Shown in pieces: positions 3,687 through 34,542 of a stretch of DNA of 64,000 nucleotides. The position numbers and the translations under genes were made by a program. The stretch's first letter is position 1. Every line of letters begins with the position of its first letter. The stretch lies in the NCBI GenBank assembly GCA_964035575.1, contig OZ037842.1, positions 1,612,001-1,676,000 on the forward strand. The letters run 5' to 3'. The notes beneath the pieces were generated by a model that saw only the letters and a list, made by a program, of their open reading frames with translations, had not been told where the DNA came from and searched no databases. Origin of the DNA: Rhynchopus sp. YZ270_cl-10 (Eukaryota).

Positions 3687-4301
3687 TTTTCAACCACCTT
3701 CCTTCAACCCTTGTAGGGATCAGTTGTAATTTTTTTCGCGAAAACATGAAATTATACATTTCAAGAGAACAAATTAAAAAGGGTCCTTATTTGCATTTTT
3801 GGGCTCCGCCCGTGCAGTGATGGGGTCAATCTCGAAAATTGGACAATTTTTTGACTACTTAAATTTTGAGAAATATGAGCCCGGTTGCTTATACGTGGGG
3901 CCCATTTTTGGCCAAAATTTTCCTCAAAATCTGGTTTTGTAAAATTGACCCTTTCCCCCCCCCCACATCGATTTCAATACTATACCTTACTTCACCTACG
4001 GTTGCCCTTACAGGGGGGGGTGAAGGAAGGTAAGTTGAAAAGGGTCCTTATTTGCATTTTTGGGCTCCGCCCGTGCAGTGGTGGGGTCAATCTCGAAAAT
4101 TGGACAATTTTTTGACTACTTAAATTTTGAGAAATATGAGCCCGGTTGCTTATACGTGGGGCCCATTTTTGGCCAAAATTTTCCTCAAAATCTGGTTTTG
4201 TAAAATTGACCCTTTCCCCCCCCCACATCGATTTCAATACTATACCTTACTTCACCTACGGTTGCCCTTACAGGGGGGGGTGAAGGAAGGTAAGTTGAAA
4301 A
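3687..4301. mobile_element. Putative MITE-like element whose right part is tandemly duplicated (261-bp unit)
   Basis: The left end TTTTCAACCACCTTCCTTCAACCCTTGTAGGG is an imperfect reverse complement of CCCTTACAGGGGGGGGTGAAGGAAGGTAAGTTGAAAA, which ends both repeat copies (~4041 and 4301). No clear TSD. Confidence 0.5.
3780..4301. repeat. Near-identical tandem duplication, 2 x ~261 bp
   Basis: GGGTCCTTATTTGCATTTTTGGGCTCCGCCCGTGCAGTG starts at both 3781 and 4042. The copies differ by very few bases. Confidence 0.95.
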
Positions 4302-5092: not shown

Positions 5093-6083
5093 GTTTGTTC
5101 TTGATTTTTTTATTTGTGCGGGCTATGGATGTGGTGGTCCAGTAGTGCCGTTTTGTACTTCACAACAACGAAAAATATTTTTCCCCCTTTTTTTTTTGCT
5201 TTTTTGCTTGTAACTAGCCCTGGCGGCTCGTGTTGTTCTGTGTGGGTTAGTCGGGTCTTGCGATCCGTCTGGGGTCTCTTTTACTCAGCATCAGGGTACG
5301 GGTTGACACATTATGTGAACACTTCCCCTATCCCTGGCTGCTTAAGGGTGCACAGACAGCACACCTTTCCCCAGGGCGTGGCCGATCCCTTTGCTGTAAG
5401 CGTGGGGACTCTGGCATGACTTCCAGACCTGACATCCCCATATATCAGGTCTTCACGCTTTCTGTTATCCTCCCGTTTCTTTCTTTTATAGGTGACAAGG
5501 ATTATCAGAGATTTCTTTTAGTTTAGATGTGCACGAGAGGCACATTGATCACATTTTTTTCCTTCTTCTTTACGCACACTACTTTGTGAGCGGAAAGTGT
5601 CACTTTGTTCACTCACCCAACGCAGCACCGCCCAATAGGTGTGTGGAAGCGTCAACGCATCAAACAACCACAAGAAGGGGGTGAGGGAACACTTTTCTGG
5701 GGCCTGTTTTGCCTATTAGCCGCTTCTGCATTGCGTTCTTTTATTCTTTTATTCTTTTTTTGGTCTGAAGCGAACCGAAACAGTGTCCTGCTCACAGAAA
5801 GAAAAAATAACAACAAAAATAAAAGGGTGAAAGTCAAATGTATACACATATACACAGGGTTATAGTCAGATCTATACACTCATTGTATGTACAATTGTCA
5901 ATTGTACATACAATTGTATAGAAATTGTATAGATCTGACTATTTGATGTACAATCCCAACTTTTTTTATAGTCAGATCTATACAATTTATGTACAATCCC
6001 AGTATACACTAGGTCGTACACAAATTGTATAGATTTGACTATACAAAAGTCAGATCTATACAATTTTTGGATTGTACACGCCA

Positions 6084-6150
6084 TACCCAGGTACCCAGGT
6101 ACCCAGGTACCCAGGTACCCAGGTACCCAGGTACCCAGGTACCCAGGTAC
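6084..6150 (+). repeat. Tandem 8-mer array (TACCCAGG) x ~8 inside the MULE
   Basis: Directly visible. Produces the spurious RYPGTQVP-repeat ORFs. Confidence 0.95.
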
Positions 6151-6554
6151 ACGGTACACTGGATACAAGGATAAAAGTCGTGAAAGAGCAACCACAGCCA
6201 ACCCGCCAGTCACTGAAAAGTGACCAGACAGTCCACTTGACAAACACAAAAGTGTCCGTCGCGTGGGGCATTCATGCACTGAGGAGATAATGATCCAACA
6301 ATTCACAAGAAAACATTACTTAACCTACTGCTGGAAATTGCCAGGTCGTAGTAACACACAAAGTGTGCCTCCGTTCGGGAATATCGGAGTTATAGAGTCC
6401 TAAAAGGCCTCTGCCGCTAGTCAAGGTATAACCGAATGAACGGCCCAAGACCCCCGTGGAGAAGTTAAATGTTGTAATGATTTCAAGTAAAATGCGAGCA
6501 CTGTCTTACCCTCCTCAATGCATGGTGGAAGATGTCTTTCACAACAAATATCCT

Positions 6555-7386
6555 GTACCCAGGTACCCAAATTCCCAAACCCACGCAGTGGCACATGACC
6601 GCAAGTGTGAGTGACCCACACATGAGGGAATGCGACACTACGCAAAATTTACCACCAGACCCTGTCTTTCGTGCACCTGAAGTACAACGCCGCAGACAGG
6701 CCAAACATGCGTTGGACTCAGAGGAATGCCCGCTGTGCAGGTATCAAACATGAGAACCAACTCCCAGCAACAAGGCGCCTTTTGGCGGGCGTTGTTGAGG
6801 GTGTTTGGGGTGCAAAGTTTTCCACAATTTTGATGCGCGGGTACAGAAGTGTTATCTTGTTCTTTCATCTCTAGGAATGTAAATGTCAATCGCGTTTAAC
6901 TACCACGAGGGCTTGTTCAGTGAACCCACGAGGGGTCGCAGGGGGTTGGTTATCCCATATCTATCAAAGGTTGTGTCGACCAGGCTAAACCACTATGTTA
7001 CGCTGTACGTTGTTAAATCCGAAGAAATAACACTTTAGCAGCCGCAGGAAGTTTGCTAAAAAGAGTGCCTCACGCTACACAAACCACCACCCGCGATTGA
7101 CTTAGATGTTATAACAAAGAGAATTCAGAACAAAACAACACCCTGCCCCATACACACTAAATTGTCATGCTTTAAGAGCATGCCTGGGCCAAAATTACTA
7201 TGACGAAAAGGCAACAAGACCACCCACAAGGAGTGTGAAATGTGCACTGGTTTTCTGGGGGAACGCAATATTTTCTTGTGTCTAGTCCTCCGCAAGCAGA
7301 GGACAGACTTTCCGGAAGGTTTCCAAAGTCGAATTTCTTGCACTAGCTATGCTCCCTGGGTTAAATGGCAATAGCAGTGACTGACT
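6555..7386 (-). ncRNA. Candidate large structured RNA core, copy 1 (cargo of the MULE-like element)
   Basis: Homologous to 19565-20293 (same orientation) and 17397-18365 (inverted). Long-range complementary arms 6849-6863/7127-7141 and 6885-6894/7092-7101. No conserved ORF. Strand inferred from G-U bias. Confidence 0.55.
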
Positions 7387-9041
7387 TCTGAGAAAAATCG
7401 GGTGTGCGAAACCCAATTTCCATTTTTTGTGTATAGTCCTGTAGGGGTGGGTGTGTGTGTGGGTAGGTGGGTAGGTGGGTGGGTGTACTCTAAACTGTTT
7501 TCCACTATGGGTAGGGATTTGTGTACGACCTAGTGTATACTGGGATTGTACATAAATTGTATAGATCTGACTATAAAAAAAGTTGGGATTGTACATCAAA
7601 TAGTCAGATCTATACAATTTCTATACAATTGTATGTACAATTGACAATTGTATATACAATGAGTGTATAGATCTGACTATAACCCTGTGTATATGTGTAT
7701 ACATTTGACTTTCACCCAAAATAAAATACCCACGTAAAAAAAATAAGTACCACGCCAATTCACGCACCCAGAGCACCCTTTGTACATCAATGAGGGCACT
7801 CTGAATTAATACTGATTTTTTGCACATTTTATGTTTTCACTTATCACCTGTATTTTTTCTTGTTTAACACGCAAATTTAAATCGCCTATTCAAGTTTTCG
7901 CAGTAGTTATTTTGCAATATTTCACTTATTAATTTTCGATGCTCGTGAGCTCAGTTTGCCTCGCTGCGGAAAATTAACCACACTCGCATCGAAAATTAAT
8001 GCATTAAATTATCGCAAAATATAACTTCTGTATAAAAAGTCGAATCAATAGATATTAAAGTGCGTGGACGAGAGTCACATTCATTTTTCAAGTTTTTTTT
8101 TTATATTTCCGTGCATTTTATTTTCCACAAACTGCACATTTTTTCGGTACACACGCTCATAGAAGCGTTTGCACCAAAACCACTTTTTTTTAGATGTGTG
8201 CACGAGAGTCACATTCATTTTTTTCAAGTTTACCTTCTTTTTTATCCATTGTCAGCGCCAATCAACATCACTTTTTTTTTCCCCCACTTTTTTAAAGTTT
8301 TTCTACACGGAATGCATAACATCTTATCAGACGATGGTTTTGACCTGTTTTTGCTTAACCCCCTCCTCGAAATAGATGTAGGACTGCGTAGTTTGGGTCC
8401 ACCCGGTGCACCGGTCATATACCAAGGTACACTGGCATGAGAGGGCTTTTGTATTTCAAGTAAACTTTGTTTGCCGTCGGGTGTCGGGTCTGCTCGTCTC
8501 CCATGCGATATCTGCGTAAGGTGCCCCCGCCAGCGTTCGCCTTCTCGCAGGGGTCAGAGGCATTTTTTTTTTTTTTGGCGATTTTTTTTTTTGAGGTGGT
8601 ATTTCAAGTCAACCCTTCAAGAAAGAGGACCGATGTTCTTTTTTATGGAATTTTTTTTAAAAATTGGGTTGTATGCATTCTGTGTCCATATTAATTTTGT
8701 GTGTTTCCAAAGAGTTTGTCTATGCGTCTGTTAGAGGTGCTGTTCACGTATCATGACGTGGTCATTCCCTTGGTTTTGAGTGTTACACGTTTCAATCACT
8801 GCATGAGTTTCTTGCCCATTACCTTTGTCACCATGAGAGCACACCACCACCACCACACACCAACCAACGCAACACTCATCTTCACGAACAACTATTTCTC
8901 GTTGTTCCACACCCACCCTTCTTGTTGCAGCTCTCAGCTTTGCCGATCTTTTAAAAAAAAAGCTTCCTCTTCCCTGCAATTTTACAAACACTCTCTCCGG
9001 AACCCCAAAGCATTTATTAACAGATTTTGTTCTACACAAAA

Positions 9042-10070
9042 ATGCCGCTCCCAGTATCACCAATGCGGGCAACGTCACCTACACGACGTGCTTGGGGTGG
9101 GTGTGAAGGTGGACGGGATAGAGTTGCTGTGGGCGATCCAAATTATTGCACTGAAGACCGCCGAAGCGAGGCGAGGGCGGGGCGTGCTAATGTCGCACGC
9201 AATACGGGGTCTCTTGTTTCAGGCCTGAGTTGGTCTGGATCTGCCAAAGCAAACGACAGCAAACGCGTCCGCAGCTGCGGCGCGAATATCCGACAGACAT
9301 TCAACCACAGCAGCCTGCACCCCGCGAGAGGTGGTGTCTGCACTGACGTTACCGACAAACGTACCGGACGACGCCCTTCTCCTGAAAAACACCGCAACAA
9401 CAGCAGCATCCGCCAGACCAAACCTGTTGTGGGTCTGCATCAACAGCGTTGGAACTCTTCAATCCGAGCCTCAGGATGCAACGTTGAAGAAGCACCGCTA
9501 CCTCGGGTCCGGGGGAAGTTGAGGACAAATTCTCCGCAAAAAACGTCTGCGATTGGTGTGAGCAACCATACATTGACACATGACGCAGAGTCGGTAAGGG
9601 TGCGGCGGCGTGGGAATGGGGCAGGGGGGATTGGGAGCTTGGAGGTGCAGACTGCGGGGCTGACGTCATCTGCTTTGTGTCCGCAGCCGGAGTACGATGA
9701 GTCACCCCCAAGAGCACGCAAGAACAAGAGTGCGTCGCCTTCAAAGTACCCAACGCAGGTAGGGGTAGCCATGCACGCTCCACCCCAGCAAGCGTCCACG
9801 AAGCACAAACAGCAATGGGTCGCAGACATGCTCCAAAACCGTGCCCACCTCCTCGCCCCCGCAGGCGCAGCCTCCATCCACAACCCCGGCCACGGTGCCA
9901 GAAGACCCCTCGACGGTTCAGAGGCACAAAGGCAAGGCACACCGCGCTTCATCAGTACCTGGGAGAAGCCGGTCCCCCCGCAGTCCCCAGTGCGAAGGAT
10001 TTCGATTACAGGGTCGCCAAAAAGGGGTTATAACAGTCATTCTACATCCAGGTTGCTTGCGTGGGGGTGA
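9042..10070 (+). CDS. Hypothetical basic, probably disordered protein (~342 aa)
   Basis: Long ORF with codon usage like neighbouring genes. ATG at 9042 follows a CAG acceptor-like site. No recognisable domain. Confidence 0.7.
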   Translation: MPLPVSPMRATSPTRRAWGGCEGGRDRVAVGDPNYCTEDRRSEARAGRANVARNTGSLVSGLSWSGSAKANDSKRVRSCGANIRQTFNHSSLHPARGGVCTDVTDKRTGRRPSPEKHRNNSSIRQTKPVVGLHQQRWNSSIRASGCNVEEAPLPRVRGKLRTNSPQKTSAIGVSNHTLTHDAESVRVRRRGNGAGGIGSLEVQTAGLTSSALCPQPEYDESPPRARKNKSASPSKYPTQVGVAMHAPPQQASTKHKQQWVADMLQNRAHLLAPAGAASIHNPGHGARRPLDGSEAQRQGTPRFISTWEKPVPPQSPVRRISITGSPKRGYNSHSTSRLLAWG

Positions 10071-10258
10071 TGCTAGCTGAGGGAGGGTGTTTTTTTTTGT
10101 AAAAATTGGGTTATTTGGGTAATATTTCACTGTAATGTATTAGATGAAAAAAGAGTAGTTTCTTTGGTTTGTGTATAAAAAAATTGAGGGTAAAAAAATA
10201 AATAAGTTTACACCATCCAGATTCACACAAAAAAACAAACAAAAGGGAAGCCGCCAAT

Positions 10259-11845
10259 ATGTCTGACATTGCAACAGTGAACGGCGACATGAATGTGATC
10301 TGGATGCTGGTCTGCGGAGTGATTGTGTTTCTGATGCAGCTTGGTTTCTGCTTCCTCGAGGCAGGTGCCATCCGTGCGACAAACGTGAGCAGCATTATGT
10401 ACAAGAACTTTGCGGACTGCTGCATTGGGGCCATCATGTGGTGGTTCTGTGGGTACTCCTTTGCCTTTGCGGGGAACAATGAGTTCATTGGTGGAGACGA
10501 CCGTCATATGTGGGCACTCTCCCCAAACCCGTCGGATGAGCTGTACGCCAACCTGGGACACTTCTTCCTGTCCTTCACATACATGACAACGGCAGCTACG
10601 ATTGTGAGTGGTGCTGTTGCGGAACGTGTGAACCTCGTCGGGTACGCCATGCTCGTGCTGTTCATCAGTGGGTTCACCTACCCAGTGGCCGTGCACTGGA
10701 TCTGGAGCGGCTACGGATGGCTCTCCCCCTTCTCCGACAACAAGATCAGCGCCAACGGTGTGCTTGACTTCGCTGGCAGTGTTGTGCTCCACGAGTTCGG
10801 TGGCTGCTGTGCGATTGTGTTCGCCTTCCTGCTTGGACCACGCAAGCTGCGTGACGGCATCGACGTCTTCTCTGAGGAGGGCCAGAAGATCGTTGCGCCA
10901 CACAACCGTCTCCTCCAGGCCGCAGGTACCCTGATTCTGTGGTTCTCGTGGTTTGCCTTCAACGGCGGGTCTGTGGCCGCCATTGCCGAGGGTGGATCGC
11001 TTGTTGCCGCAAACGCGATTGTGAACACACTTCTCTCTGCTGCGTCGTCGACAATTATGTGCATGATCTTCACACGCTTTGTGTACGGGTACTTCGATGT
11101 GGGCCACTGCTGCAACGCTGCACTGACCGGACTGGTTGGGATCACAGCAGGATGTGCATACATGGCGCCACTGTACGCACTGTGCACAGGGGTTGTGTCG
11201 TTCTGGTTCTACTACGGCTTCTACAAGCTGCGTGTGATGCTGCGCATCGACGACGTGGTGGACGCAGGCGCCGTGCACTACGCAGGTGGTGTCTGGGGTG
11301 GCATTGCTGCAGGCCTCTGGGCTGACCAGGCACGTATCCGTGCGGGCACAGGCAACCCGGACGCTGGTGCTGAGTACGGACTCTTCCTTGGTGGAGGTGG
11401 CAAGCAGTTGGGTATGCAGCTTCTCGGGATTGTGATGATCACTGTGTGGTGCGCTGTGACGACGACGATGGCATACTTCTTCATCAACGCCACTGTGGGT
11501 GCACGCATGAGCGAGCAGGTTGAGCTGGAGGGCATTGACCACCACGAGCACGGAGGTGTTGCCTTTGACTACCTTGAGCATGTTAGCAAGAGCCACCGTG
11601 CCGGCGAGGTCATCGACGAGACACACAACGTGGTTGTGAAGCTGCAGACGTTCTTCGAGAATGTGTCGAACGACGGCATGAAGGACGCTGCAGGCGAGGT
11701 TCGCGATGCCATGGCCTCCTTGGAGAAGGCACTTGCCGCTGCTGCCGCACCCAGCCAAGGTTCAATCAGCGGCTGTGGCTCTGACACGGTCATCAAAGTG
11801 GGTGCAACCGAGCCAGCCAACGAGGAAAGCAAGTCCAGCGACTGA
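10259..11845 (+). CDS. AMT: Ammonium transporter (Amt/Mep family)
   Basis: MQLGFCFLEAG, TAATIVSGAVAER, DFAGSVVLH (first conserved His), WFSWFAFNGGS, IDDVVDAGAVH (second His), ~11 hydrophobic helices and EGIDHHEHG C-terminal motif. Confidence 0.97.
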   Translation: MSDIATVNGDMNVIWMLVCGVIVFLMQLGFCFLEAGAIRATNVSSIMYKNFADCCIGAIMWWFCGYSFAFAGNNEFIGGDDRHMWALSPNPSDELYANLGHFFLSFTYMTTAATIVSGAVAERVNLVGYAMLVLFISGFTYPVAVHWIWSGYGWLSPFSDNKISANGVLDFAGSVVLHEFGGCCAIVFAFLLGPRKLRDGIDVFSEEGQKIVAPHNRLLQAAGTLILWFSWFAFNGGSVAAIAEGGSLVAANAIVNTLLSAASSTIMCMIFTRFVYGYFDVGHCCNAALTGLVGITAGCAYMAPLYALCTGVVSFWFYYGFYKLRVMLRIDDVVDAGAVHYAGGVWGGIAAGLWADQARIRAGTGNPDAGAEYGLFLGGGGKQLGMQLLGIVMITVWCAVTTTMAYFFINATVGARMSEQVELEGIDHHEHGGVAFDYLEHVSKSHRAGEVIDETHNVVVKLQTFFENVSNDGMKDAAGEVRDAMASLEKALAAAAAPSQGSISGCGSDTVIKVGATEPANEESKSSD

Positions 11846-14800
11846 ATGAAGTGACCACTAGGGGTAACAAAAAAGAACAGGGAAAGGGAAAAGGGAAACC
11901 CCTAGTCCTCACCTCAGTCCTGCACCTCTGCCCTTTTTGAATGCGAAAAAAATGTAGTTTTGTCCCTTTTCCCCATCATCCTTTTTCCCCCCTTCACTGA
12001 ACAGAACTTCGTATTTCTTCGCGACCGATCGCGACGTGCATTCCGTATCGGAGAAGTGATATGTCTTCACTTCCTCTGTCCCATCGGAGACTATGTGTGT
12101 CGTGGTTGGGGTCGCTTACTTTGTTCACTTTGCGGATTTTTTTTTCTGTCTTTTTCTTAAAAGAGATTTGAAAAAATAGGTCTGCTTCGAGAGCATTTAG
12201 ATGTTCTGTTTATTGTCCTTTGAACACTTTTGTTTTTTAAAACAAAATGTATGTGCCTTTGATGCCATTCATATAAGTTATCTTTGCTCTGCCTGCATCT
12301 GCAGAGCTGCGTTGGGAGACCTCACTTTTTTTTAATATTCACCATTTAGCACTCTTTGACTTAATAAATATTCCGATGTGAGGGTCCATCATTCAATCTA
12401 TATTTTTGCAACGCACGCAACTAGAAACCTCGCATGGTTCACAGTCCCCCTCCCCGTTTTCCTCTTTTGCGGTACTTCCACCTCTAGTTGCCTTCGTGGC
12501 CTTCCCCCCTTTTTCCCCTTGGTTTTTTTTTTTTAGCACACTCCCGATCTCCCTTTCTGAATTGCCTGCATTTGCTAAATCAAACTACGTATCTGGTCAC
12601 CTGAAATTTTTTTTGTTTCAACCATGCAGTGAAGAGGCAATCATAGGAAAGGTGGTTATTTGGTCGGGTGAATGCTTTGTGTGGAGACAGAACAACATAG
12701 TGTTGAGATCTCAACAAAAAAAAAGGACAAAAAAGTACTACACGGAAGAACCCATACAGAGCATTAGAATCTACCCTGCCACCTTCAAAGATTCGCGTGC
12801 ACATTCATCTTTGTTCTTTTTTCTTTTTTCTTTTTTCTTTTTTCTTTTTTCCAGTGATTCCTTTTCACTAAGCAGGCTTTGGTTTGGCTTACCACCTTTA
12901 CCACTTTTTATTTTTTTCACAGCTACGACAATAAGTTATAACGAAGAGAAATTTTAAAATCTCGCCAAAAAAAAAGACCGCGACATTTAGAGCTGTCCTC
13001 CTGGGTTGTCTTGTAGTGAACCCAACGGAGAAATGCCTTTGGGGCTGTTTTTGTGCTTTGGTGAAGAAGAAAGCAATAAAACGGGGACCGTAATAAGTCT
13101 CGTTGCACCTAAGACCGTAACAGAAGATATTGCTTTGAGACCCGCAACCCCCTGCAGCGGCTGGGAGATAGGTCCTGGCCCGCCTTGCAAAGGGGGGAGA
13201 TTCTTGGGTAATGTTTCCTCTGTTGCCTCTTAACCTGCAGCAGCCACCTATAGGGCCAATGATCAAGGTGGCTAAGCATAGCCTGTGTGTCTTGTTAACG
13301 GCATTAATTTTAAGTAAAATAATGCCCAATTTTCATACGTTTTTTAATAGCATTTGTTGTCATTCAAGTCGAGGGGGAGGGAAGGAGAGAGTGCAAAAAC
13401 ACCGGCCATCACGCACATACACGTTTCATGGGTATTATTCCATTCAGAATTTCCCACAAACCTGATTTTAAACACACACACATACGTTTTTCACCACGGC
13501 CGTTTTTTTTCTCCCTTTTTTTTTTCGCAACCCGGAGTGTCAGTGCGCGGAAGAGGGAGTTCGTTTTTTTTTGTTCTGTTTTATTTTTTTGTGTGCGCTA
13601 AAAATAATAATAAAAATTCTCGTGTTTCTTTTTTGTCTTCACACCAAGGGGCACCCTCCCGCCCTTTTTTGAGTTTTTGCAAAAACTCGGTCTGCTCCCT
13701 TCTGTTCCCTATCCCCTCCCTTTCTTTTCGTCTTTTTTTTTGTTCTATTTTCGATTGTGCTTGTATACCAGAGCTCTCAACCCAGGGCACGACACAACGT
13801 GTACACACTGTAGAAAATATGTTTTAAAAATACCAGTTTTTTTCTTTTTGCGTACCCCCATCCCCTTTTGACCCACTGTTTTGCTTATATTTGCATACAG
13901 TGTGTCGTCTCACTTCCCATGACGTTATCGATTCCTATCTAATAAGAAATAGAACTAGGAACTGTTCAATTATTTTCTCCCCCATCCCTCTCCAGGCCTT
14001 TGTGTCTGGAAGGTTTTTTTTCTTCTTCTTTTTTTTTGTTTGATGTAAAGAGCACAGAGAGGCACCTTATCATCATTCAAAAGAAAAAATTTTTTTTTCG
14101 TTTTGCGCTTGAAACCAAAAACCTCCACTAGCCAGCCTATTGTAGGTCAAAGTTTTTTTTGCCTGTTGCTTTTCTTGTTTTGCTTTAAACATAGCCAAAA
14201 AAAAAGGGTGTATTGTATCTGAACACAATATTTCCTGTAAAAACCCCCGAAAAGATGGGTGTGCACAGTGAGGCACTTCATCTTTCATTTTTTTTCGATT
14301 TTATTTTTGCCTAGGAAAATATACGACGTTCCCCAAAAATGCTTAAAATACCGTTATATCTTTTATCGAATTCAGCTATGGGGGAAAAAATGGACTTTTT
14401 TATATATTTTACATAGACCATCCTCCTCCTCTCCCCCCCGTCAATACGACCCTCTATCACGATATCACTGTGTCTTCCCCTGCTGACAGTCTGCTATAAT
14501 CGGGCGCCACGGAACTCCGGTTGTGTTTCTTTGGTGTGATTTTCCAAAATTAGGTGTAAAAAAATGTCCTCGGTTCCTTCAATACAGGGGGGAGATGTGT
14601 GCTCACTCGAAACAAGAACAGGCTGTCGGGGTGGAGAGTTGGCGGCTACACCCCAACCCTTACCTGTACCTGGGGGTAGTACGACATCTTCGCCTTCGGC
14701 TTCCTCCGTGCCATCTCGTGCATCGCTTCAGGCTTCCACGCCGCTTTTTCCTATTCTAATTTTCCCGAATTTCCCAGAAGAACCTTGTGTGTGAGGTATA

Positions 14801-15027
14801 TGAAGCTGTGTATATGGGAGAGTGAAAGGGGGTACAAAAGGAAACTAACATCACTCTCAAATTCAATCGCGACATCACCTTTCCTTGTACATTGCAGTAA
14901 AAATGTTACACCAATCCCATTCAAATTCAACAAATCTCATCCAGAATTTTTTACACTACACAAGAGAAAGAAGTTTATTCCCCCCCTGCCCCCCTGCTCT
15001 GCTTTCTGAAGTGAACCAGAGGTAACT

Positions 15028-18000
15028 ATGCTTGAGTTAGAAGGAGAAGGATTGTACAAGACTCTTCTGGTTGCGTTGGGTGCCCTGTTTTTGCTAACAA
15101 AGCTTTCGCAACCAAAGGACGATGTATCCTCGAACGTCAATTTCCAACAGTTCCAAAGCCATTTCGTGTACGTCTACCTCATCATGATGATGGCTGACTG
15201 GCTGCAAGGTCCCACTGTGTTCAAGCTCTATCAATACTATGGGTTTTCCCGCCAAGAAAATGCAACGCTGTTTATTGCAGGGTTCGGAGCGTCCATGATC
15301 TTTGGTGCGTTTGCTGGGTATGCACGAAATGAAGTTTTGCAGAAGAGCGTTGAGGTCCTTTGACTTCGGCTTATATTGACAGTTTTTTGTCTTTTCAAAT
15401 CCTTTTTCCCCCAACAGAACCTTCGCTGACAAATACGGCAGGAAGCTGTGCTGCCAGATCTATGGGGTGACATACGGACTTTGGTATGACCAGAGATTTA
15501 TATACCATAGTAGAACTGAGGCTGAACCTCAGTTTTGAAAAAAAAAAAAAAACTTTTGCAGATTTGGACCACGGATGCTGCCAGATCTGGCCAGATTTGG
15601 GGGCCAATTTCCCAGATCTGGCTCGTTTTCCAGATGTGGAGATCTTGTTTCCAGATCTGGCCAGATCTGGCCAGATCTGGGAATCTGGGAAATTTTTTTT
15701 TTCAAAAAAAAAAAAAAACCCCCAGATCTGGCCAGATCTGGAAATCTGGCCATTTTTTTTTTTTTCTCAGATTTCTGGCTATTGTCTCCCAGGGAAAGGG
15801 ACTCTCGAATTTTTTTTTTTCGCCCCTATATAGGGCTAATTTCGACGATTTGAGGCCGTTAAAAGCAAAATTTGACACTTTTGAGCATCTGTGGGGGTCT
15901 AAAACGTGGTTTCGCGCACCCGAAATTTCGTGGTTTTTACCAAAGACAAGTCGATTTTTGAAAAATCTCGAAAAAAAATTTTTTTTTCCCGGGAAAATTT
16001 TGACCCCTGAGTAGGGTTTTTGTGCACCAAAAAGTGCAAAAAAACGCAAGAGTCGGGTGTTTTGACGATCTGGGTACCGCCATATGCACTACAGGGGCCC
16101 ACAATTTCGACTTTTTCTTAGCAATTTCCTTCATAATTTTTTTTTTCGATTTTTGGCAAAGGCAAATCTCAGGCAAAAAAAATTCACCCCTGATAGTGGG
16201 TCCTTGGGTGTCCAAAGATGCCAAAAACACAAAAATTTTGATGTTTTGACCATCTGTGGGCGCCTAAAACGCACTTCTCTGCCCAAAAAATGAATATCGA
16301 TTTTTCCTTAGCGTTTTTATAGCCGTGCTTTTTGGGTACTTTTTCGCAAAGGGAAAAAAAAAATATCAACCAAAATAGTGGGTCCTTGGGTGACCAAAAA
16401 TGCAAAAAAACGCATTTTTTTGGTGTTTTGACCCTTCAGAACCACCCAAAACGCACTTTTGTGTACCAAAACACGCATATTTCACATTTCCTTAGCAATG
16501 CCTTCACAAGTGCAAGGTGATTTTTGACCAAACTAATTTTGTGCACTTTTTTTGTGGTCACGTAACACTAAAATCCTCTCCGTGATGCGAGAATTACATG
16601 TGCGAATGCGATAATGATTCTCGCATGCGAACGCCCAAAACCACGAAGGAGGACGCAAGCAAGGCTTCAGTGCACTTAGGTACAGGATGCGTCGTTTTCA
16701 GTTACAAAAAAGGGTACTGTGAAGCGGTTGAGGCACACACACACACACACACAGACCCGTTGCAAAATGCATCTGGGACCCACGCTAGACCCCCCAAAAG
16801 CTGTAAAACCATATATTTCCATCTCGCGACCCCAGCGGATGTGGACTGAGGTGTTTTTTTTGGGTGTTTAGAAAGGTTTTTGTCCGATTGGAGAATTTTT
16901 TCGGTAAGTGTTGCGTTTTGTCCCCACTGAGTGTGCACTCAGAAAACACTCATCAATAAAACGACCTTTCTGTTCGGTAAAAAATAGTTATTTTCTATCG
17001 TAGTAGTGGGTTTGTCGTGCAGTGATGTTCTTTGTACCTGGAGAGTGGGCCGAGTGCAAGGTATGTTTTTAACCCCCCGGTTTTCTCCCTTTCGACATGT
17101 CCGCTATTTTTTAGCTATTTTTTTTTTGTCAACAAAAATGTCACTTTTACGTTTAAGGGGTACGGGGCGGCTTCTTGTTTGTTTGTTTGTTTTTTTGTTG
17201 TAGTCTCTACTTTTACATTCAATTTCTCTTAACAGGTACCCGAACCGACGACCCTTCATCGTGACAGCGAAGCAGTGCCGACGGAAGAGCTGGTGCAATT
17301 ATTTGAAAACCAGGTGGCGATCGTAAAAGTCGGGTTTATATACCAACTTTTCCATTAACCCACCCCATAGACCACCCTAATTATTATGAAACTCTTAGTC
17401 AGTCACTGCTATAGCCATTTAATCCAGGGAGCATAGCTAGTGCAAGAAATTCGACTTCGGGATCCGGAAAGTCTGTCCTCTGCTCTTGCGGAGGACTAGG
17501 CACAAGAAAATATTGCGTTCCCCCAGAAAACCAATTTTTGTCAGAGTAATTTTTGCCCAGGGCATGCTCTTGAAGCATGGCGGCTTGGTGTGAGAAGGGG
17601 CAGTGTATTGTTTTGTTCTAGATTTCAACGGTTGTTAGAACGAGTCAAGTGGATGCTTATCTAAACACTGACTTTAGTACAGACCCGAGAGATCACACAT
17701 GACTTTGAGGAAAGAACAAAGCAATGCATCTGTACCCGCACGCCAGGTTGTAGTTACTTCAGAATTTTCTTAAGTTTGCATGAACGAGGAGGGGCGAATC
17801 ATTCTTCGGGAACCATTAGCTGTATACCATGGAATGATTTTCTCAAAAACACCACGTGGGGGCTGAATTCAATCCCTTAAGAATTGCGAATTCAGCCTTT
17901 GTAGAAGGTACGTCTTACTTGTACTTGTACTTGTATGCCGTGTCCACCCTTCTCGACCTTACCGGTTCACATGTACGAATAATATTAGGCAATGGTAACA

Positions 18001-21000
18001 CCCTTCTCAATTGTGCAAACTTAAGAATTTTCTGCTGGAACTTACCAAAATCGATTTTCTTTCACCCCAAACACCCGCAACACCCCACCTGCTACTTCGG
18101 TAGCCTGTGTTGTTGGGAGTTGGTTCTCATGTTGATCCCCAGTGTTTTGCACTGCTTCTTCTGAGCCCAACGCTGTTTGGCCTGTCGACGTAATAAATAC
18201 GAAGACAGGGCGGCGGTGCCAACAATTTTCCGATGATGTAACGTTTATCTGATTGATTTATCGTTTGATATACCTTGTGTGTCCTACTTCGTAACTTGCA
18301 CACACGAGCAACGTATATTGAACGGTACTTCAAGCGATACTTCGTTATGTCATTGGGGTACCTGGAAAAAAAAATTTTCCCAGACGTCCCAGATCTCCCA
18401 GATTTGGCCAGATCTGGCCAGATCTGGCCAGATCTGGGACGTCTGGGAAAATTTTTTTTTCAAAAAAAAAAAAAAATTTTTCCAGATCTGGCCAGATCTG
18501 GGCGGCCCAGATCTGGAGATCTGGCCAGATCTGGCAGCATCCGTGTTTGGAAAAAAAGTTTTTTGCATTTTTTGGGGAACTCGGTTGCTGACCGCACCAT
18601 GAAATCCCGTACCATACAGGCTGTACCCAAATTTTTTTTGCCTGCGGCGCCATTTTTCCTTTTTTGCTCCGCAAAAAAGGGTTCGTTGAGTGACTCTGTG
18701 GTGTAAAAGGCTAGATTTTTACACCGTACCCCAATATTTTTTCGCCTGCGGCGCCATATTATATTATTTTTTTTTCGCTTCGCAAAAAAAATTTGAGTCA
18801 TGAGTCCTGATATGGGTGAAAAATTGCATCCGGGTGCCCTTTTGTGCACTCCTCCTGAAGGGGGGAAAGGTGCTGTGAATGCTACCTTGCGTGCTGGAGT
18901 CAGGCATAGTGCATGTGGGACCTGCTGGAGCCCTAGCCAGTGAAGCCCCCTGGGCTAGTACAATGATGATACTTCAATCTGAAGTCCATTTCTTCAAAAA
19001 AGCCCCTCCGTGCCTGCAGCCCCCTCAGGAATAGCAACCTCACTTTTTTTGCACTTTTGGTAAGGAAAAAAATCGTATATAAATCCCTGGGTATGACGTG
19101 CTTTAAATATACATAGCGCTCCAATTAGAGTGTTAGGGTATAATTAGAGTCTGGGATTTTGGGTCAAGTCAGTTAGAGTCCAGTTAGAGTATAATTAGAG
19201 TCGCTTTTCTTCAATTAGACTATAATTAGAGCGCAGTTAGAGCATAATTAGACTCTAACTACACTCTAATTATAGTCTAATTAGAGTAAAACAACAGGCT
19301 TCTTGTAGGTGCAAACGCCTTAAGGAACTGGTTCCCCTAAGGTTCCTCTGTAGGACCCAGGTGTCCAGGTGCCCACATAGCTGAGAATAAGACTTGGGGA
19401 CCCGGGACCCGGTTATTCTCAGCCGGACTGGGACACAACTATGTGAAGGCGCTGTGGGTCCGCCTGAAAGCGGGTCGGGGACCCGGTCGCGGGAGGGTGG
19501 GGGCCTAGTCCAAGTCCTACTGTACCTAGTACCCGGGACTCGGGACCCGGCTTATTCTCAGCTATGGGTACCCGGACCCGCAGTGGCACATGCCCTCAAG
19601 TGTGAGTGACCCACACATGAGGGAATGCGACACCGCAAAAACTCTTCGTGCACCTTCGGGTGCAATGCCGCAGACAGGCCAAACAGCGTTGGACTCAGAG
19701 GAATTCCTGCTGTGCAGGTAACAAACATGAGAACCAACTCCCAGTAACAAGGGGCGCCTTTTGGCGGGCGTTATTGAGGATGTTTGGGGTGCAAAGTTTT
19801 CCACAATTTTGATGCGCGGGTACAGAAGTGTTGTCTTGTTCTTTCATCTCTAGGAATGTAAATGTCAATCGAGTTTAACTACCACTAAGGGGTCGAAGGG
19901 GATAATCCCAGTATCAAAGGTTGTGTCGACGGGAAATCTATGAGTATACGTTCATTTCATCCGCAGAAATAACTACTTATGAACCCAGGAGAGATCCAAG
20001 CCTCGCGCTAAACCACCACCCGCGATTGACTTAGATGTTATAACAAAGAGAATTCATAACAAACAACACCCTACCCCATGCACACTAAAGTGCCATGCTT
20101 CAAGTGATCATGCCCTGGGCCAAAATTCCTGTGCTAAAAAGGCAACAAGACCAGTGTGAATTGTGCACTGGTTTTCTGGGGGAACAAACAATATTTTCTT
20201 GTATCTAGTCCTCTGCAAGCAGAAAACAGACGTTCTGGATTACAAAATCGAATTTCTTGCACTGGCTATGCTCCCTGGGTTTATGGCTATAGCATTGGTT
20301 GATGTGCCCCTCTTATTGACCCTATTATAAGACTCTAATTAGAGTCTAATTAGAGTCCAGTTAGAGTATTAGAGTTCAGTTAGAGTTTTAAAGACTCTAA
20401 TTATACTCTAACTGCCGACTCTAATTATCTAGTTGGAGTCTAATTAGAGCGCTATGTATATTTAAAAAAAAAATTACAACTCTTCCTGTTTGAACTATAT
20501 TATCTACCTGATATCCCTAACAGTTGCCTGACAAAGCATGTGAACAGCTATCCTGTGCTCATGTTAGGAAGGATCTTGGGTGGCTTTAGTACAAGCATCC
20601 TGTGGAGTGCGTTTGAGGCGTGGATGATCAGCGAGCACAACAGACACGGCTTCAGCTCGGAGTGGATCGGGGGGACCTTCTCGATGATGATCCAGCGCAA
20701 CGGCCTTGTCGCGATCCTGTCGGGGTTCATCGCTGAGGCGGCTGTAAGCTTCTATGATGGACATCCAGTGGCACCGTTCGATGTGTCCCTTACATGCCTC
20801 ATCATCGGCACGCTCATTATCACGTATGCACCCCTTGTTGAGTGAATGAACATCATACCCCTCTTAACAGCTTCACGTGGACTGAAAACCATGGCGACAC
20901 CCAGTCCTCCCAGACGGCAGGACTCACCCGCGCAGTGAAGGTCATCATGAACGACAAAAAGGTGTGCTACGATTGCTCTCGTACAATATTTCTTTCCCCC

Positions 21001-30133: not shown

Positions 30134-30348
30134 ATACGGAGAGAAAAAAAAAATGGAGTTTTTCTCCCCGGTAGAGAGGGGGAGTTAAAATAAGGGAACG
30201 TTCTGAATTATGGTTTTTTTTTTCGTTTTGTTCAGCAACGAAAATGGGTGTAGGACTGCATGGTTTGGGTCCACACAGTGCAGGGCAGTGTACCAATGTA
30301 CGCTCTTCATGAGGCCTTTTGTATCTCAAGTCAATTATCATTTCTTTA

Positions 30349-30434
30349 GGTGACTAAGCACGAGAGGCTTCGGTTCATCTTATAAACTTTTTTCTTTCTT
30401 AAAGATGTGTGTGCTCGAGAGGCACGTTCGTCTT
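30349..30434 (+). repeat. Representative pair of a dispersed ~35-40 bp hairpin repeat family (ACGAGAG-like loop)
   Basis: GGTGACTAAGCACGAGAGGCTTCGGTTCATCTT and AAGATGTGTGTGCTCGAGAGGCACGTTCGTCTT. About 20 related copies across the window. Confidence 0.75.
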
Positions 30435-32796
30435 ACTGCGTTTGTCTTTTTTTTCTTTTTGTGTGTCTTTCCAAAGAAGCGCCGTCTTCGTAGCTATCCT
30501 CGTGTGCTCTCCCGATTGGAATGGATGATTAGTGACTTTTGTGGGTAGGGTGGGTGGGGGGAGGTATACGTATGGGAGTTATCTTAAATTTATTTAGCGT
30601 TCGTTTCTTCTTTTTTGGGGTCATTGAGAGAAACACACTACGCATGGGTAAGGGAACCAATTTTTCCTATCTAACGCTTTGTTTCGAGAGGGTGTTTAAC
30701 GTGAGTAGCGTACACAAAAAAAAACAGTGGATATGGCACAACTGTGGCAACACAACCGAGGCAACTACACTACTCCAACAATTTATCAAAAAAAAAAAAA
30801 ATATTAATAGTGGAGCTCATCCTCTGGGTGTCTACACTTATACAGCAGTTTTAAAAATATAGTATTTTCAATTCATCCCTGCGGTGTTTCAGTAAGAGCG
30901 TAGAACCTGTGTTTTTTTTGCTTGCGTTTCGACGCAGCGGTTCACTCTGATGGAAGCGGGCAATACCCACCTGTTGAGGTTCAGAGGCGCGTTCCTCTTT
31001 CAAGAGTTCTCTTTACTTTGTGTTGTTCAAAGGTGACTGAGCAAGGGAGGCTTAGGTTCATATAACCCCCCTTTTTTCTTTTGAAAAAAAGCAAAGAAAC
31101 GTAAACTTGAAAAATTCAACCATGTTACAATATCCTGGCACAACGACTCCTTTTTCAGTTCATTTGCCAAAAAATCACTTTATTCCGGTTTGGTATCGTT
31201 GAAGAGACCGCCACGCTGCCCATCATCTTATCCTGTCTGTCCGTGCGATTTCATAACAATTGCCCTGAGGCAACTTAACAGCTTTTTTTTTTGTCCATCC
31301 TTATTTTTCTTAACCCAATAACTGACATAACAGAAGAAAAAAAATGCCCCTCTGGCTACACTAATAATACAACCAAATTTTCAAAAAAAAAATAAAAAAT
31401 ACAATCATTACAACAAACGGAAGGGTAAAAACTAAGGTGTATTCTGGGATTCACAACCCTAGGAGCAACGTTTTTTTTTCTCCCCCTACTGCTGTTTGTT
31501 GTAACGACTGTAATAATAAGGGTCTTCACTTGACTCTGAAAGGGTTTCTTCTATTGTCACCTAAACAAGGTGCCGCAAAGATAATATTATTCGTCTTTTT
31601 TTGGCGAAGAGGTTTTCCTGGCTCTGCGCACACAAAAACACAAAAATAAAAACTGAAGGTCCCAATCTTTGCTTCCTATAAACGCAGAAACCCCCCTTTT
31701 TGTTTGCACTTATCAGCTTCACTTCCCTTTTTTGTAATGATTTTTTTTCTGATGTGTTAATTGCAAATCAGATCCCCTGCTCTATTCAGTAGAAGACAGC
31801 GGACCTCTTTGCGAGAAAAAAGGGGGCAACAGTATTGGAGTGTACCATTGGTAAAGCAATGGTATTTCAATGATGATATAGGTGAGTGACGACACCTCCC
31901 CCTTTTTTTTTGCCAGTTGGGTGTGCACGTTTAGGAAAGGCAACTTCCTATTAAGCCCGCCGACTCCATTTTCTTGGAGCTTCCAGGACCGTACATAGCT
32001 CCGTTCCCTAATAGGAATGGTAAAAACAGTGGAGATTGCACAACTGTGGCAACACAACCGAGGCAACTACACTACTCTAACAATTTATCAAAAAAAAATT
32101 TCAAAAAAAGGGCGCAGGGGATGTTACCTATGCTTCCTGTTTGCTATATGTAAGTAGACTATTATGAATTTGTGGAAATTTGATTTTTTTTGTAACACTT
32201 AGAACACCGATTTACTTCCGATTTACTCACAAAGAGTGTATTGCGTTCGAAAATTTGATTATTTTATGGAAAAAAAAAAACCCGAGCGGTAGCGGGAGTA
32301 GGACATCTCAACGTAGACCGCGAAATGGAAGTAAGTTGGGCGGAGGGTGGGCGTGGCGTGGATATATTCTGTTGCGACACGTGATTTTTCCAAGTTTTCA
32401 AAAAAAAAAAAAAAAGGTCTGACTTTTCTTGGTTCGTTGAGATTGGTGTGATTTCATCTAAGAGAAGCATTTACTTCTCTTTTTTACTTTTTGCTAAACA
32501 TGTCAAAAAAAGCAAGGGTACATTGTTTGCACCCTCTTTACATTATTTTTGTTGCATTAAGAAAAGAATGTATATGAAATAATCTAAGAGGTTGCCACGT
32601 ATTTTCTCTTTCTTTCCGAACAATAACTTTCCGTCGTTTTGCGTTTTTTTTTTTTTTTTTTGTGTTTTTTTTGTTTGCAAAGGACAATTTTTTTTTTCTC
32701 ATGGTTTTGCTCTCCCTTCTTAGGTTCCGTTTTGCCAATAAAATAACACCATACCTTAACAGCATTCCTTTTCTGGGGGATGGGGTGGGAGTCTTT

Positions 32797-32902: not shown

Positions 32903-34056
32903 TGTTCGGAAAGGGAGATCCGGGGCTAATGGCTTCTGTCAACTGAGGGATTTCACCCCGCCATCTTGCTGGGATTCTGGGTCTTTCTGGTCACGTGAGG
33001 TCGAAACCCCATAGTAACAAAAAAAAGGCTTTCTCGAAGTACTGCAAAACACCTTTAGCTTTGCGAGCAAACAATGCTGGCCGTCTTTGCAAAAAAAGAA
33101 AAAAGAAAAAATAGTGTTATATTGTGTGTATGTGAAAAAACAGTGCGTTGTGACGAGAGAAAAAACTTGGTCCAAATGAGACGGGGTTTTTGTTACTTTT
33201 GGCGAGTTTTTTTTTTTGGAGGTGCACTTACAATTTGTTTGGGTGCCTGTATTTTGCACACACACCTGACGCGATGCGTGCCGAAGTTCCGAAGCTTCGA
33301 ATAAGTGTTGGGCCACCTCCCCCCTACCCTCGAACGAATGGTTTACGTTATGTTCAGTTTGATTTTCTCGTCGAGAATTTTTGAAAATAAAAAAGGACCG
33401 CCCATGTTGTGTCGTTTCCTCTAAGCTTCTTTGGACACGGCAGATATGTGAAAAAAACAGAGAAAGGTCAATAAAATAAACTGATTTTTCTTTGAAAAAG
33501 ATCTGTTTTATGTGTTCTAGTTTTGGTTTGTTTTCTGTTTCAAAAAAAAATTTTTTTTTATGGTTCTTTTTGTGACTTCTCAAATTGTCAATTTATTGGT
33601 TTGGGTAAAAACGAGACCCTGTCACATTCAGTGACCCGTCGCGTTTAAATTATTGCTTTCTATTTGAAACTACAAATGGTTTGTGTTTCTTCCCCGAGAA
33701 CGTTTAAAAACACTGCCCCAGAGCAGCCCTTCGTCTTTCAACGCCTTATTAGGTTGCCCTCGCCACCCCTCCCATTTAGTACTTCGGATCAAAAAAAAAG
33801 ATGCTTTCCCTTCGCCAAACGACATTTTTTTTTTTTTTAATTCATCTCTCCCTGCACACATCCCAACCTGAGCAATGCTCCGCTCTGAAGAACTACCGTA
33901 ATAATGTTGGAACGCTTTAAAAAATGCCCTGCCGTTCCAACATTACGTTAACGGTGTTCCCTTCTCAAAAACCCCTCTAGCTTCTCCGGCATAAACCACT
34001 TCTCACAAAGTATGAACCTTCTTTCCAGATCCTGCATACACACTACACTATAAAAT

Positions 34057-34542
34057 ATGTTGCGCGGAACGGTCATCCAGAAGATTGTATCAGGTGGACA
34101 GACCGGTGCGGATAGGGCTGGGCTGGACGCAGCTGTAGCGTTGCGTCTTGCCCTGGGGGGGTGGTGCCCGAAGGGGAGACGTGCAGAGGACGGTCCTATC
34201 GACGCGAAGTACCCTTTGGTTGAGACACCGCGCAGTGCGTACACACAGCGTACGGAGTGGAATGTTCGCGACTCTGATGCTACTCTTGTCTTAGTGTGGG
34301 AGAGGCTTATCCCAGGTGGTGGGACCGAACTCACAGTGAAGCTTGCTAAGAAACACAACAAGCCTGTTCTCGTGGTGGATGTCTCAGAAAAACGGTCGCA
34401 AAACACACAACAATGTCTCGAAGACTTTGTATCAAACAATTCTGTCAAGGTGCTCAACATTGCTGGTCCACGTGAGTCCACAACGGTGCCTGTATATGAA
34501 CCCTGTCTCGAGTATCTGACGTCGCATCTTCAAAGGTTGTGA
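34057..34542 (+). CDS. Circularly permuted YpsA SLOG-family protein (often annotated 'putative molybdenum carrier protein')
   Basis: KIVSGGQTGADRAGLDAA, GGWCPKGRRAEDG, RTEWNVRDSDATL, GGTELT, LNIAGPRES. Intronless. Confidence 0.9.
   Translation: MLRGTVIQKIVSGGQTGADRAGLDAAVALRLALGGWCPKGRRAEDGPIDAKYPLVETPRSAYTQRTEWNVRDSDATLVLVWERLIPGGGTELTVKLAKKHNKPVLVVDVSEKRSQNTQQCLEDFVSNNSVKVLNIAGPRESTTVPVYEPCLEYLTSHLQRL

Follow-up and report, generated by a model that had tools for sequence, protein, structure and literature searches.

A conserved folded module, most likely an RNA, in three unrelated DNA transposons of a Rhynchopus genome

A eukaryotic transposon of the cut-and-paste kind should have no need of a large RNA. 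The known exception is the Fanzor omegaRNA, which in the best-studied case is ~90 nucleotides (nt) long and lies on the element end. Why, then, do three transposons without genes carry one and the same sequence module of ~950-1,300 nt? The question is raised by a 64-kb stretch of the genome of Rhynchopus sp. YZ270_cl-10 (assembly GCA_964035575.1, contig OZ037842.1, positions 1,612,001 to 1,676,000 of the forward strand), called here the window, to which all coordinates refer. The analysis supports an interpretation of the module as a single strand with a conserved fold, most likely an RNA, which unrelated DNA transposons carry. The reading proposed for its role, to which a probability of about one in three is given, is that it forms the last exon of a spliced transposon RNA and serves as a scaffold for a protein that acts in trans and aids the persistence or spread of the transposons.

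A profile search with nhmmer finds exactly three copies of the module in the window (c1, c2 and c3). By self-BLAST of the window, c1 and c3 share 79.8% identity across 806 columns, while c1 and c2 match in two blocks of 76% and 73% identity, a third, short block being placed through an anchored alignment. An earlier note on this DNA had already recognized three homologous cores with frequent non-triplet indels and no conserved open reading frame, and both observations hold: 23 of the 25 indels between c1 and c3 are non-triplet, and a Pfam search left none of 60 frames of at least 40 amino acids (aa) from the elements above cut-off, with three matches below threshold (E 0.016-0.024). The module is non-coding, and the non-triplet indels together with the missing Pfam match exclude a recognizable coding origin. 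The homology of the cores is real, but the structured region is longer than was then proposed, reaching ~6160 in c1 and ~19356 in c3.

All three copies are located inside elements bounded by terminal inverted repeats (TIRs), whose superfamily names are inferred from the form and length of the TIRs and target-site duplications (TSDs). The intergenic copy c1 is carried by Shell 1, a gene-less MULE-like element (5825-7717) with TIRs of 201 bp at 5825-6025 and 7517-7717, identical at 200 of 201 positions, and a 9-bp TSD AAAATAAAA. Both c2 and c3 lie within one ~5 kb intron of an MFS_5 gene. This intron harbours an outer hAT-like element (15491-19089; TIR CAG(A/G)GATTTATATAC, perfect 8-bp TSD GGTATGAC), in which Shell 2, an inner element and the direct carrier of c2 (15570-18545), is nested; Shell 2 has perfect 27-bp arms starting with CACGG, CCAGATCTGG arrays and, at its flanks, a 7-bp near-duplication with one mismatch (TTTGGAC/TTTGGAA). 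Shell 3, the carrier of c3 (19107-20461), is flanked by TTAA (or TA) and contains 11-bp CTAATTAG palindromic arrays. Alignments between the left ends of the three direct carriers score no better than shuffles; the left segment of the hAT-like element and the left end of the inner element it contains reach a score of 37, above the shuffle maximum of 26. The three copies thus ride in three gene-less TIR elements, whose ends are unrelated, as had been claimed; c2, though, belongs directly to the inner element and not to the hAT-like one. Every copy has a subterminal array at 0-60 bp from its 3′ end and the element end at 180-260 bp from it. A TSD belonging to the module itself was not found around c1 or c2; around c3, GGGCAC occurs just 5′ of the copy (20304-20309) and at the start of its tail (19369-19374, minus), possibly a 6-bp duplication confined to this copy. 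On balance the module is probably cargo of these elements rather than an independent insertion.

The carriers display several further features. The TSD of the hAT-like element (15483-15490 and 19090-19097) contains the 5′ splice site of the MFS_5 intron, which places the insertion of this element at the exon-intron boundary, with duplication of the donor. Shell 3 begins just 17 bp beyond its end. Within Shell 2, three degenerate repeats of ~182 bp each occupy 16014-16433. An AT-rich palindromic segment adjoins Shell 1 on the outside (7908-8021), and its window gives the lowest background folding score (z -5.0).

Does the module fold, and on which strand? The c1 core has a folding z of -4.3 on the minus strand versus -0.2 on the plus strand; c2, the best-folding copy, reaches -9.8 on the plus strand versus -3.2 on the minus strand (insertion, -5.5; 3′ half, -6.7), and c3 reaches -3.7 on the minus strand with its tail domain versus -1.6 for the core on the plus strand. 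The additional 3′ domain of c1, termed U, scores -10.5 on the minus strand and -5.1 on the plus strand. Among 38 background windows of 300 nt, with the best strand taken and 10 shuffles each, the lowest z is -4.97. The favoured strands (minus for c1, plus for c2, minus for c3) correspond to the same strand of the module.

Conservation of the fold was assessed by folding one copy and checking its confident pairs on another, a design meant to limit circularity, the expected number of kept pairs being derived from the substitution spectrum. When the structure of c1 is tested on c2, 14 of 16 changed pairs are kept (8.0 expected, P 0.0017); in the reverse test, which is not independent of the first, 13 of 18 are kept (9.0 expected, P 0.032). 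On the opposite strand only 11 of 48 changed pairs are kept across six tests, none of them significant. The kept changes are mostly swaps from G-U to Watson-Crick pairs, which points to one single strand. Structure is thus conserved between c1 and c2. Indel joints lend weak support: of 15 listed among 36, 13 orphan fewer pairs than most random placements, only one of them individually at 0.02.

The helices that had been singled out in the earlier note can be judged on this strand. The 15-bp arm with a compensatory swap is real, with 15 of 15 pairs Watson-Crick or G-U on c1 minus and c2 plus alone, and so is the stem 6885-6894/7092-7101 (10 of 10 pairs in c1, 9 of 10 in c3). The double change in CAGCAAC/GTTGTTG does contain one pair altered on both sides, but the helix includes an A-C mismatch on the presumed RNA strand. 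CCAAACA/TGTTTGG pairs in all three copies as described, while CCTGTC/GACAGG, described as kept in c1 and c3, has disappeared from c3 and is retained by c1 and c2. Two candidates were set aside: a plus-strand pseudoknot, GAGAACCA/TGGTTTTC, since the strand test favoured the opposite strand, and an RNAalifold fold of the 5′ part alone, which was mis-paired for want of its partner strands. Taken as a whole, it is very probable that the module works at the RNA level, now or recently.

The predicted RNA has a common plan with exchangeable parts. Its c1 core (6555-7387, minus) comprises a 5′ hairpin with a CCAGG loop, short hairpins, a multibranch domain and two 3′ hairpins; it is followed by the 400-nt domain U (6161-6560, minus), closed by its own long helix and overlooked previously, and by a 3′ tail of 8-bp GGGTACCT units (6084-6160, minus; 8.4 copies plus degenerate ones). 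The c2 RNA (17397-18366, plus) has a private 300-nt insertion (17755-18055) and a 3′ rod (18228-18358), and ends with GGGGTACCTGGA. The c3 RNA (19356-20303, minus), which is partly decayed, consists of a core (19565-20303), a 3′ domain of its own (~19372-19572) and a degenerate 8-bp tail. From the 5′ end, the hairpin with its A(C/U)CCAGG loop is followed by a long-range helix GUGCAAG/CUUUGCAC, longer in c2, two short hairpins and an invariant GUUCCCCCAGAAAACCA segment. Next come a long helix with a variable domain at its tip (in c1, 7165-7118/6872-6824 encloses this domain) and, in c2 only, the insertion. A multibranch domain closed by CCAAACA/UGUUUGG and the CCUGUC/GACAGG hairpin lead to a terminal rod, of which c2 has a different version, then to GGGUAC, an optional domain and the GGGTACCT-type tail, with ~1.5 units in c2. 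The optional domain is U in c1, an unlike domain of ~200 nt in c3, and absent from c2. Whole domains are exchanged between copies at fixed places. U, the c2 insertion, the tail domain of c3 and the upstream flanks show no significant similarity to one another; a helix strand GCAU...GAGGAGGG is common to U (6510-6520, minus) and the c2 insertion (17777-17793), their overall alignment being non-significant.

The bases of the 5′ loop are able to pair with the tail, and one of these pairs co-varies (ACCCAGG/CCUGGGU in c1, UCCAGG/CCUGGA in c2), and the predicted probability of this helix in c2 is 0.87-0.98. Telomerase-like templating of the tail was considered and rejected, as the loop covers 7 of the 8 bases and has no alignment region. 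On the strand opposite to the RNA, tail units (6090-6143, 6558-6567, 18357-18366) read CAG|GTAC, which is splice-site-like, and in c2 a T-rich tract precedes.

Tandem 3′ tails of short units are a trait of some ends of long and short interspersed elements (LINEs and SINEs), and the 8-bp units present in all three copies raise the possibility of a SINE-like, non-autonomous retro-module. It would depend on a LINE- or Penelope-type reverse transcriptase, prefer GGTACC/ACCTGG sites in TIR elements and be amplified with them. The swappable 3′ domains and the sharp 5′ edge fit this proposal, as do the apparently different flanks of most c1-type copies and the ~2,500 retroelement gene models given for Diplonema papillatum in PMC10161547. 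The proposal is nevertheless unlikely: c1 and c2 have no TSD and c3 has only the single 6-bp GGGCAC repeat, the head is derived neither from a tRNA nor from any Rfam family, none of the three copies is free-standing, and the acceptor-like sites at the 5′ edge, described below, argue for an exon transcribed by Pol II.

How widespread is the module? Public contigs matching 6170-7435 come from four runs, one per study, and number 3,785, 8,592, 122 and 28; no run is on record as RNA, and one of the two largest may be the source of the window itself. The number of distinct contigs indicates a many-copy family, U included. Contig depth was taken on c1 only, and its sum is not a copy number. Between bins 7331-7373 and 7374-7416 each of the four runs shows a drop of 3- to 9-fold, as expected for an exon edge or an element end, although the last bin is edge-limited. 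In one run, perhaps of RNA, contigs extend over the c1 module and one of them ends 7 nt beyond the 5′ edge, an observation given no weight here. At loose contig ends, sequence of c2 type recurs in two runs and sequence of c3 type in the remaining two, and at least one additional subfamily appears. Exact-motif scans gave 0 hits in several cases; matches obtained in others (11, 4 and 2) were alike around the query motif only and were rejected as chance, two of these loci looking like a LINE ORF1 region.

Natural variants were available as 40 listed of 92, unphased. In the core, 6 of those listed keep a pair, 3 break one and 12 are unpaired; in U, 3 keep, 8 break and 8 are unpaired, 3 of the latter closing a mismatch. 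The U variants speak against strict constraint unless partner changes lie among the other 52 rows. They bear on the idea of a relic, in which the structure was once selected in an ancestral element, a host RNA or a single-stranded DNA and the copies are now passengers, or in which the module is a decayed coding fragment. About half of the changed pairs of c3 are broken, and U variants taken singly often break pairs, both as a relic would predict. The pairs kept between c1 and c2 despite 25% divergence and the 6 of 9 listed paired-site core variants that keep their pair speak against it, as does, for its second form, the exclusion of a recognizable coding origin. A relic appears improbable, less so only than the decoy considered further on.

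The 5′ edge of the module suggests how the RNA might be produced. A splice-acceptor-like TTTTTCTCAG lies at the edge of c1 (7388-7397, minus), and the edge of c2 shows CTCTTAG, with CTAAT shortly before. Comparable sites occur within 2 nt of 0.3% (c1 type) and 5.8% (c2 type) of non-coding positions, frequencies calculated post hoc; c3 has no acceptor-like site at this edge. Directly upstream of c2, a putative gene remnant (17025-17355, plus) would consist of an ATG exon (17025-17060), a GT-AG intron and an in-frame exon from 17236, which is predicted either to splice at 17313 into the module, with a stop seven codons on, or to remain open to 17355. Its 40-aa frame has a weak best phmmer match to a protein with helix-turn-helix (HTH) repeats (E 1.8e-4, summed over repeats), so that HTH-like similarity of this gene is weak and unconfirmed. 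CAC-rich motifs, which PMC12621601 describes in diplonemid introns, occur upstream of c1 and c2.

The same data could be read in terms of a cis-acting element of a transposon mRNA, either a structured 3′ untranslated region (UTR) or a new self-processing ribozyme, that aids the expression of transposon genes under polycistronic transcription, has spread by recombination and is passive in deleted copies. A gene remnant located directly upstream of c2 on the same strand, and weakly HTH-like as the N-termini of transposases are, would be expected from this arrangement, and so would the invariant, mostly unpaired blocks and the alternative pairings of GUUCCC with GGGAGC or GGGAGU. The layout of the copies is well accounted for, their retention less so: the proposal gives no reason for the young Shell 1 family, which has no genes, to retain a 400-nt domain with a strong fold, and no known ribozyme motif is conserved. 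This possibility is given the same low weight as the SINE-like one.

The proposed scheme starts from a cassette of a gene and an RNA that would have been captured by several DNA-transposon superfamilies, the gene being later lost and the RNA module retained. Cassette capture is the simplest account of the three unrelated shells, the fixed orientation towards one TIR, the 5′ acceptor and the upstream gene remnant. The transposon transcript would be spliced, the module forming its final exon and the AG at the 5′ edge of the module serving as acceptor, and the RNA may be closed by a helix between (A)(C/U)CCAGG in the 5′ loop and CCUGG(G/A) in the 3′ tail. Full-length relatives would supply the partner protein in trans. 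A non-autonomous element would benefit from an RNA mainly if a protein acts on it in trans, which leads to the reading as a scaffold; a scaffold for a trans-acting selfish protein is itself a tentative assignment, held with no more assurance than the full scheme. The partner may be an RNA-guided nuclease, on the model of the Fanzor ghost loci, for which a trans-acting protein on gene-less loci is proposed in PMC10432273; this is the least certain step. A bolder and doubtful version sees in the module a kilobase-long RNA that acts as guide or template for a eukaryotic RNA-protein machine not described so far (a reverse transcriptase, or a nuclease or recombinase guided by RNA), captured independently by three superfamilies and shared in trans, with the 5′ loop reading the 3′ GGGTACCT units.

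Several observations weigh against this scheme. No partner protein was found in the window, where none of the 60 frames passes Pfam, and other searches with the 40-aa remnant exon gave no hit. The splice-site interpretation is post hoc. The alignment comprises only three sequences, and the two-sided changes between c1 and c2 amount to only 2-3. The four pair tests that involve c3 (17/33, 13/20, 4/9 and 9/18 kept) are non-significant (P 0.10-0.56), so that c3 looks decayed. Local 150-nt windows of c1 and c3 fold mostly like shuffles, and each half of the c1 core alone has a z of about -1.5. The helix between loop and tail has a low probability in c1 (0.3-0.45 per site) and in c3 (0.09). Taken singly, 8 of the 11 variants listed at paired sites of U disrupt their pair (unphased; 40 of the 92 variants). 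Lastly, the layout is not of the Fanzor type: the module stops short of the TIR, a variable guide at the 3′ end is missing, and the TIRs differ.

Another benefit in trans would be that of an anti-silencing decoy, whose long bulged helices bind Dicer or Argonaute and thereby blunt RNA interference (RNAi) against transposons. The long imperfect rods of c2 and U have the appropriate shape, the benefit would extend to any superfamily, and RNAi is among the features treated for Diplonema in PMC10161547. This is the least probable of the explanations weighed here: a benefit shared in trans means that retention in cis is weakly selected, and the most invariant sequence lies outside the rods.

Does the module belong to a known RNA family? 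An Rfam search returned no match at gathering scores and nothing credible at E up to 10, its low-level matches being microRNA-type on TIR palindromes and two sub-threshold small nucleolar RNAs only; the earlier statement that no known family could be assigned therefore stands. ARAGORN detects no tRNA in the module, and no Pol III head of SINE type (tRNA, 5S or 7SL) was found, the 8-bp units in all three copies being the one SINE-type feature at the 3′ end. For group I introns, there is no Rfam match and the P, R and S motifs are absent from the RNA strand, very divergent subgroups lying beyond this search; for group II introns, Rfam and a motif scan reveal no domain V with a catalytic triad near the 3′ end. 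The conserved catalytic cores of hammerhead, twister and pistol ribozymes were not found with Rfam and motif searches. A loose descriptor for ribozymes like that of hepatitis delta virus (HDV) has 0 matches in c1 and non-homologous ones in c2 and c3. RNase P/MRP is represented by a CR-I-like GGAAAGUC in c1 and c2 only, with no CR-V match and no Rfam match. HEARO, the IscB omegaRNA, is a family in Rfam, and its covariance model gives no match at E up to 10; the 5′ flanks, considered as guides, have no target for any of the three within the 64-kb window. The window contains no gene for Fanzor (a TnpB-like RuvC protein), in agreement with the earlier remark that no nuclease gene is visible and with the Pfam result. 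A blastn search with c2 yields nothing in phages and one match at E 0.9 in plasmids. The suggestion of a large functional RNA is thus upheld as regards a conserved folded strand in unrelated transposons, but a known ribozyme family finds no match.

The literature, as far as titles and the beginnings of abstracts go and with limited coverage of subscription papers, gives no description of such an RNA or element. The D. papillatum genome, according to PMC10161547, contains MULE, TATE and Helitron elements and almost 10,000 dispersed repeat motifs, the origin of many of which is unknown; the same paper states that rigorous identification of transposable elements is still to come. TnpB, IS605 and HNH are absent from those of its supplements that were searched, the sections on repeats and structural RNAs likely lying outside them. 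The module is likely a structured RNA of no known family, though it may be an unusual SINE or 3′ UTR after all.

The remainder of the window has features of its own. An encoded ammonium transporter shares 73% identity with a protein of Rhynchopus euleeides, compared with ~38-41% for most other hits, which indicates a diplonemid-like host. A dispersed family of ~95 nt (8369-8475, 30242-30334 and 54881-54989; 76-78% identity; no Rfam match at gathering score) is accompanied by shorter repeats (8061, 8195, 30322-30460, 40573-40635, 58883-59012 and 59707-59772), and could represent small-RNA clusters or a short mobile element. A single-frame gene of the circularly permuted YpsA SLOG family, which is mainly bacterial, lies at 34054-34542 (Pfam E 6.5e-55) and possibly results from horizontal transfer. 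A frame of 2,543 aa (41912-49543) contains RanBP2-type zinc fingers and recent internal duplications (80-94% DNA identity). A tandem duplication of 261 bp with 99% identity occupies 3771-4301.

If a structured module of 1-1.3 kb is indeed kept by three transposon superfamilies, it would point to a new RNA-protein system or a new large ribozyme in Euglenozoa; alternatively, it would reveal how expression of DNA transposons is achieved in a genome transcribed polycistronically. Thanks to the many natural copies, covariation analysis, the discovery of a partner and structure probing are directly feasible.

Among known systems, SINEs and target-specific Tx1-type elements resemble the module by a shared core, an exchangeable 3′ part, a short tandem tail and residence in repeats; unlike SINEs, the module has no tRNA, 5S, 7SL or snRNA head, lacks a TSD in two of three copies and measures ~1 kb or more. 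IscB omegaRNA/HEARO has a conserved scaffold that starts abruptly after a variable 5′ flank. The module shares this abrupt start and a pyrimidine-rich loop available for a pseudoknot, but it is much longer, has no Rfam match, resides in a eukaryotic TIR context and follows a 5′ flank that looks like an intron end. Retrozymes and IStron group I introns, as far as the sources consulted describe them, are likewise branched RNAs of 600-1,000 nt or large ribozymes on mobile elements; the module differs by having no detectable core of hammerhead, HDV, group I or group II type, and by shells with TIRs, not long terminal repeats or IS ends. Fanzor genes, according to PMC10530073, are carried in hAT, MuDr, Mariner, Sola, Helitron and CMC elements, non-autonomous ones included, and gene-less Fanzor ghost loci retain the RNA (PMC10432273). 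As described in PMC10432273, PMC10530073 and PMC13565253, the RNA lies 3′ of the gene, and in Chlamydomonas, where introns are present, it is part of a conserved 3′ UTR; the SpuFz1 omegaRNA measures 88-90 nt, spans the right inverted repeat and extends 14-15 nt into the variable flank. The Rhynchopus module is ten times longer and ends 180-260 bp inside the element, and a nuclease gene was not found nearby, so that the analogy with Fanzor and its omegaRNA drawn in the earlier note fails for size and for position relative to the TIR. It does fit the distribution across the shells: in both systems, one cargo is found across unrelated DNA-transposon superfamilies and is present in gene-less copies.

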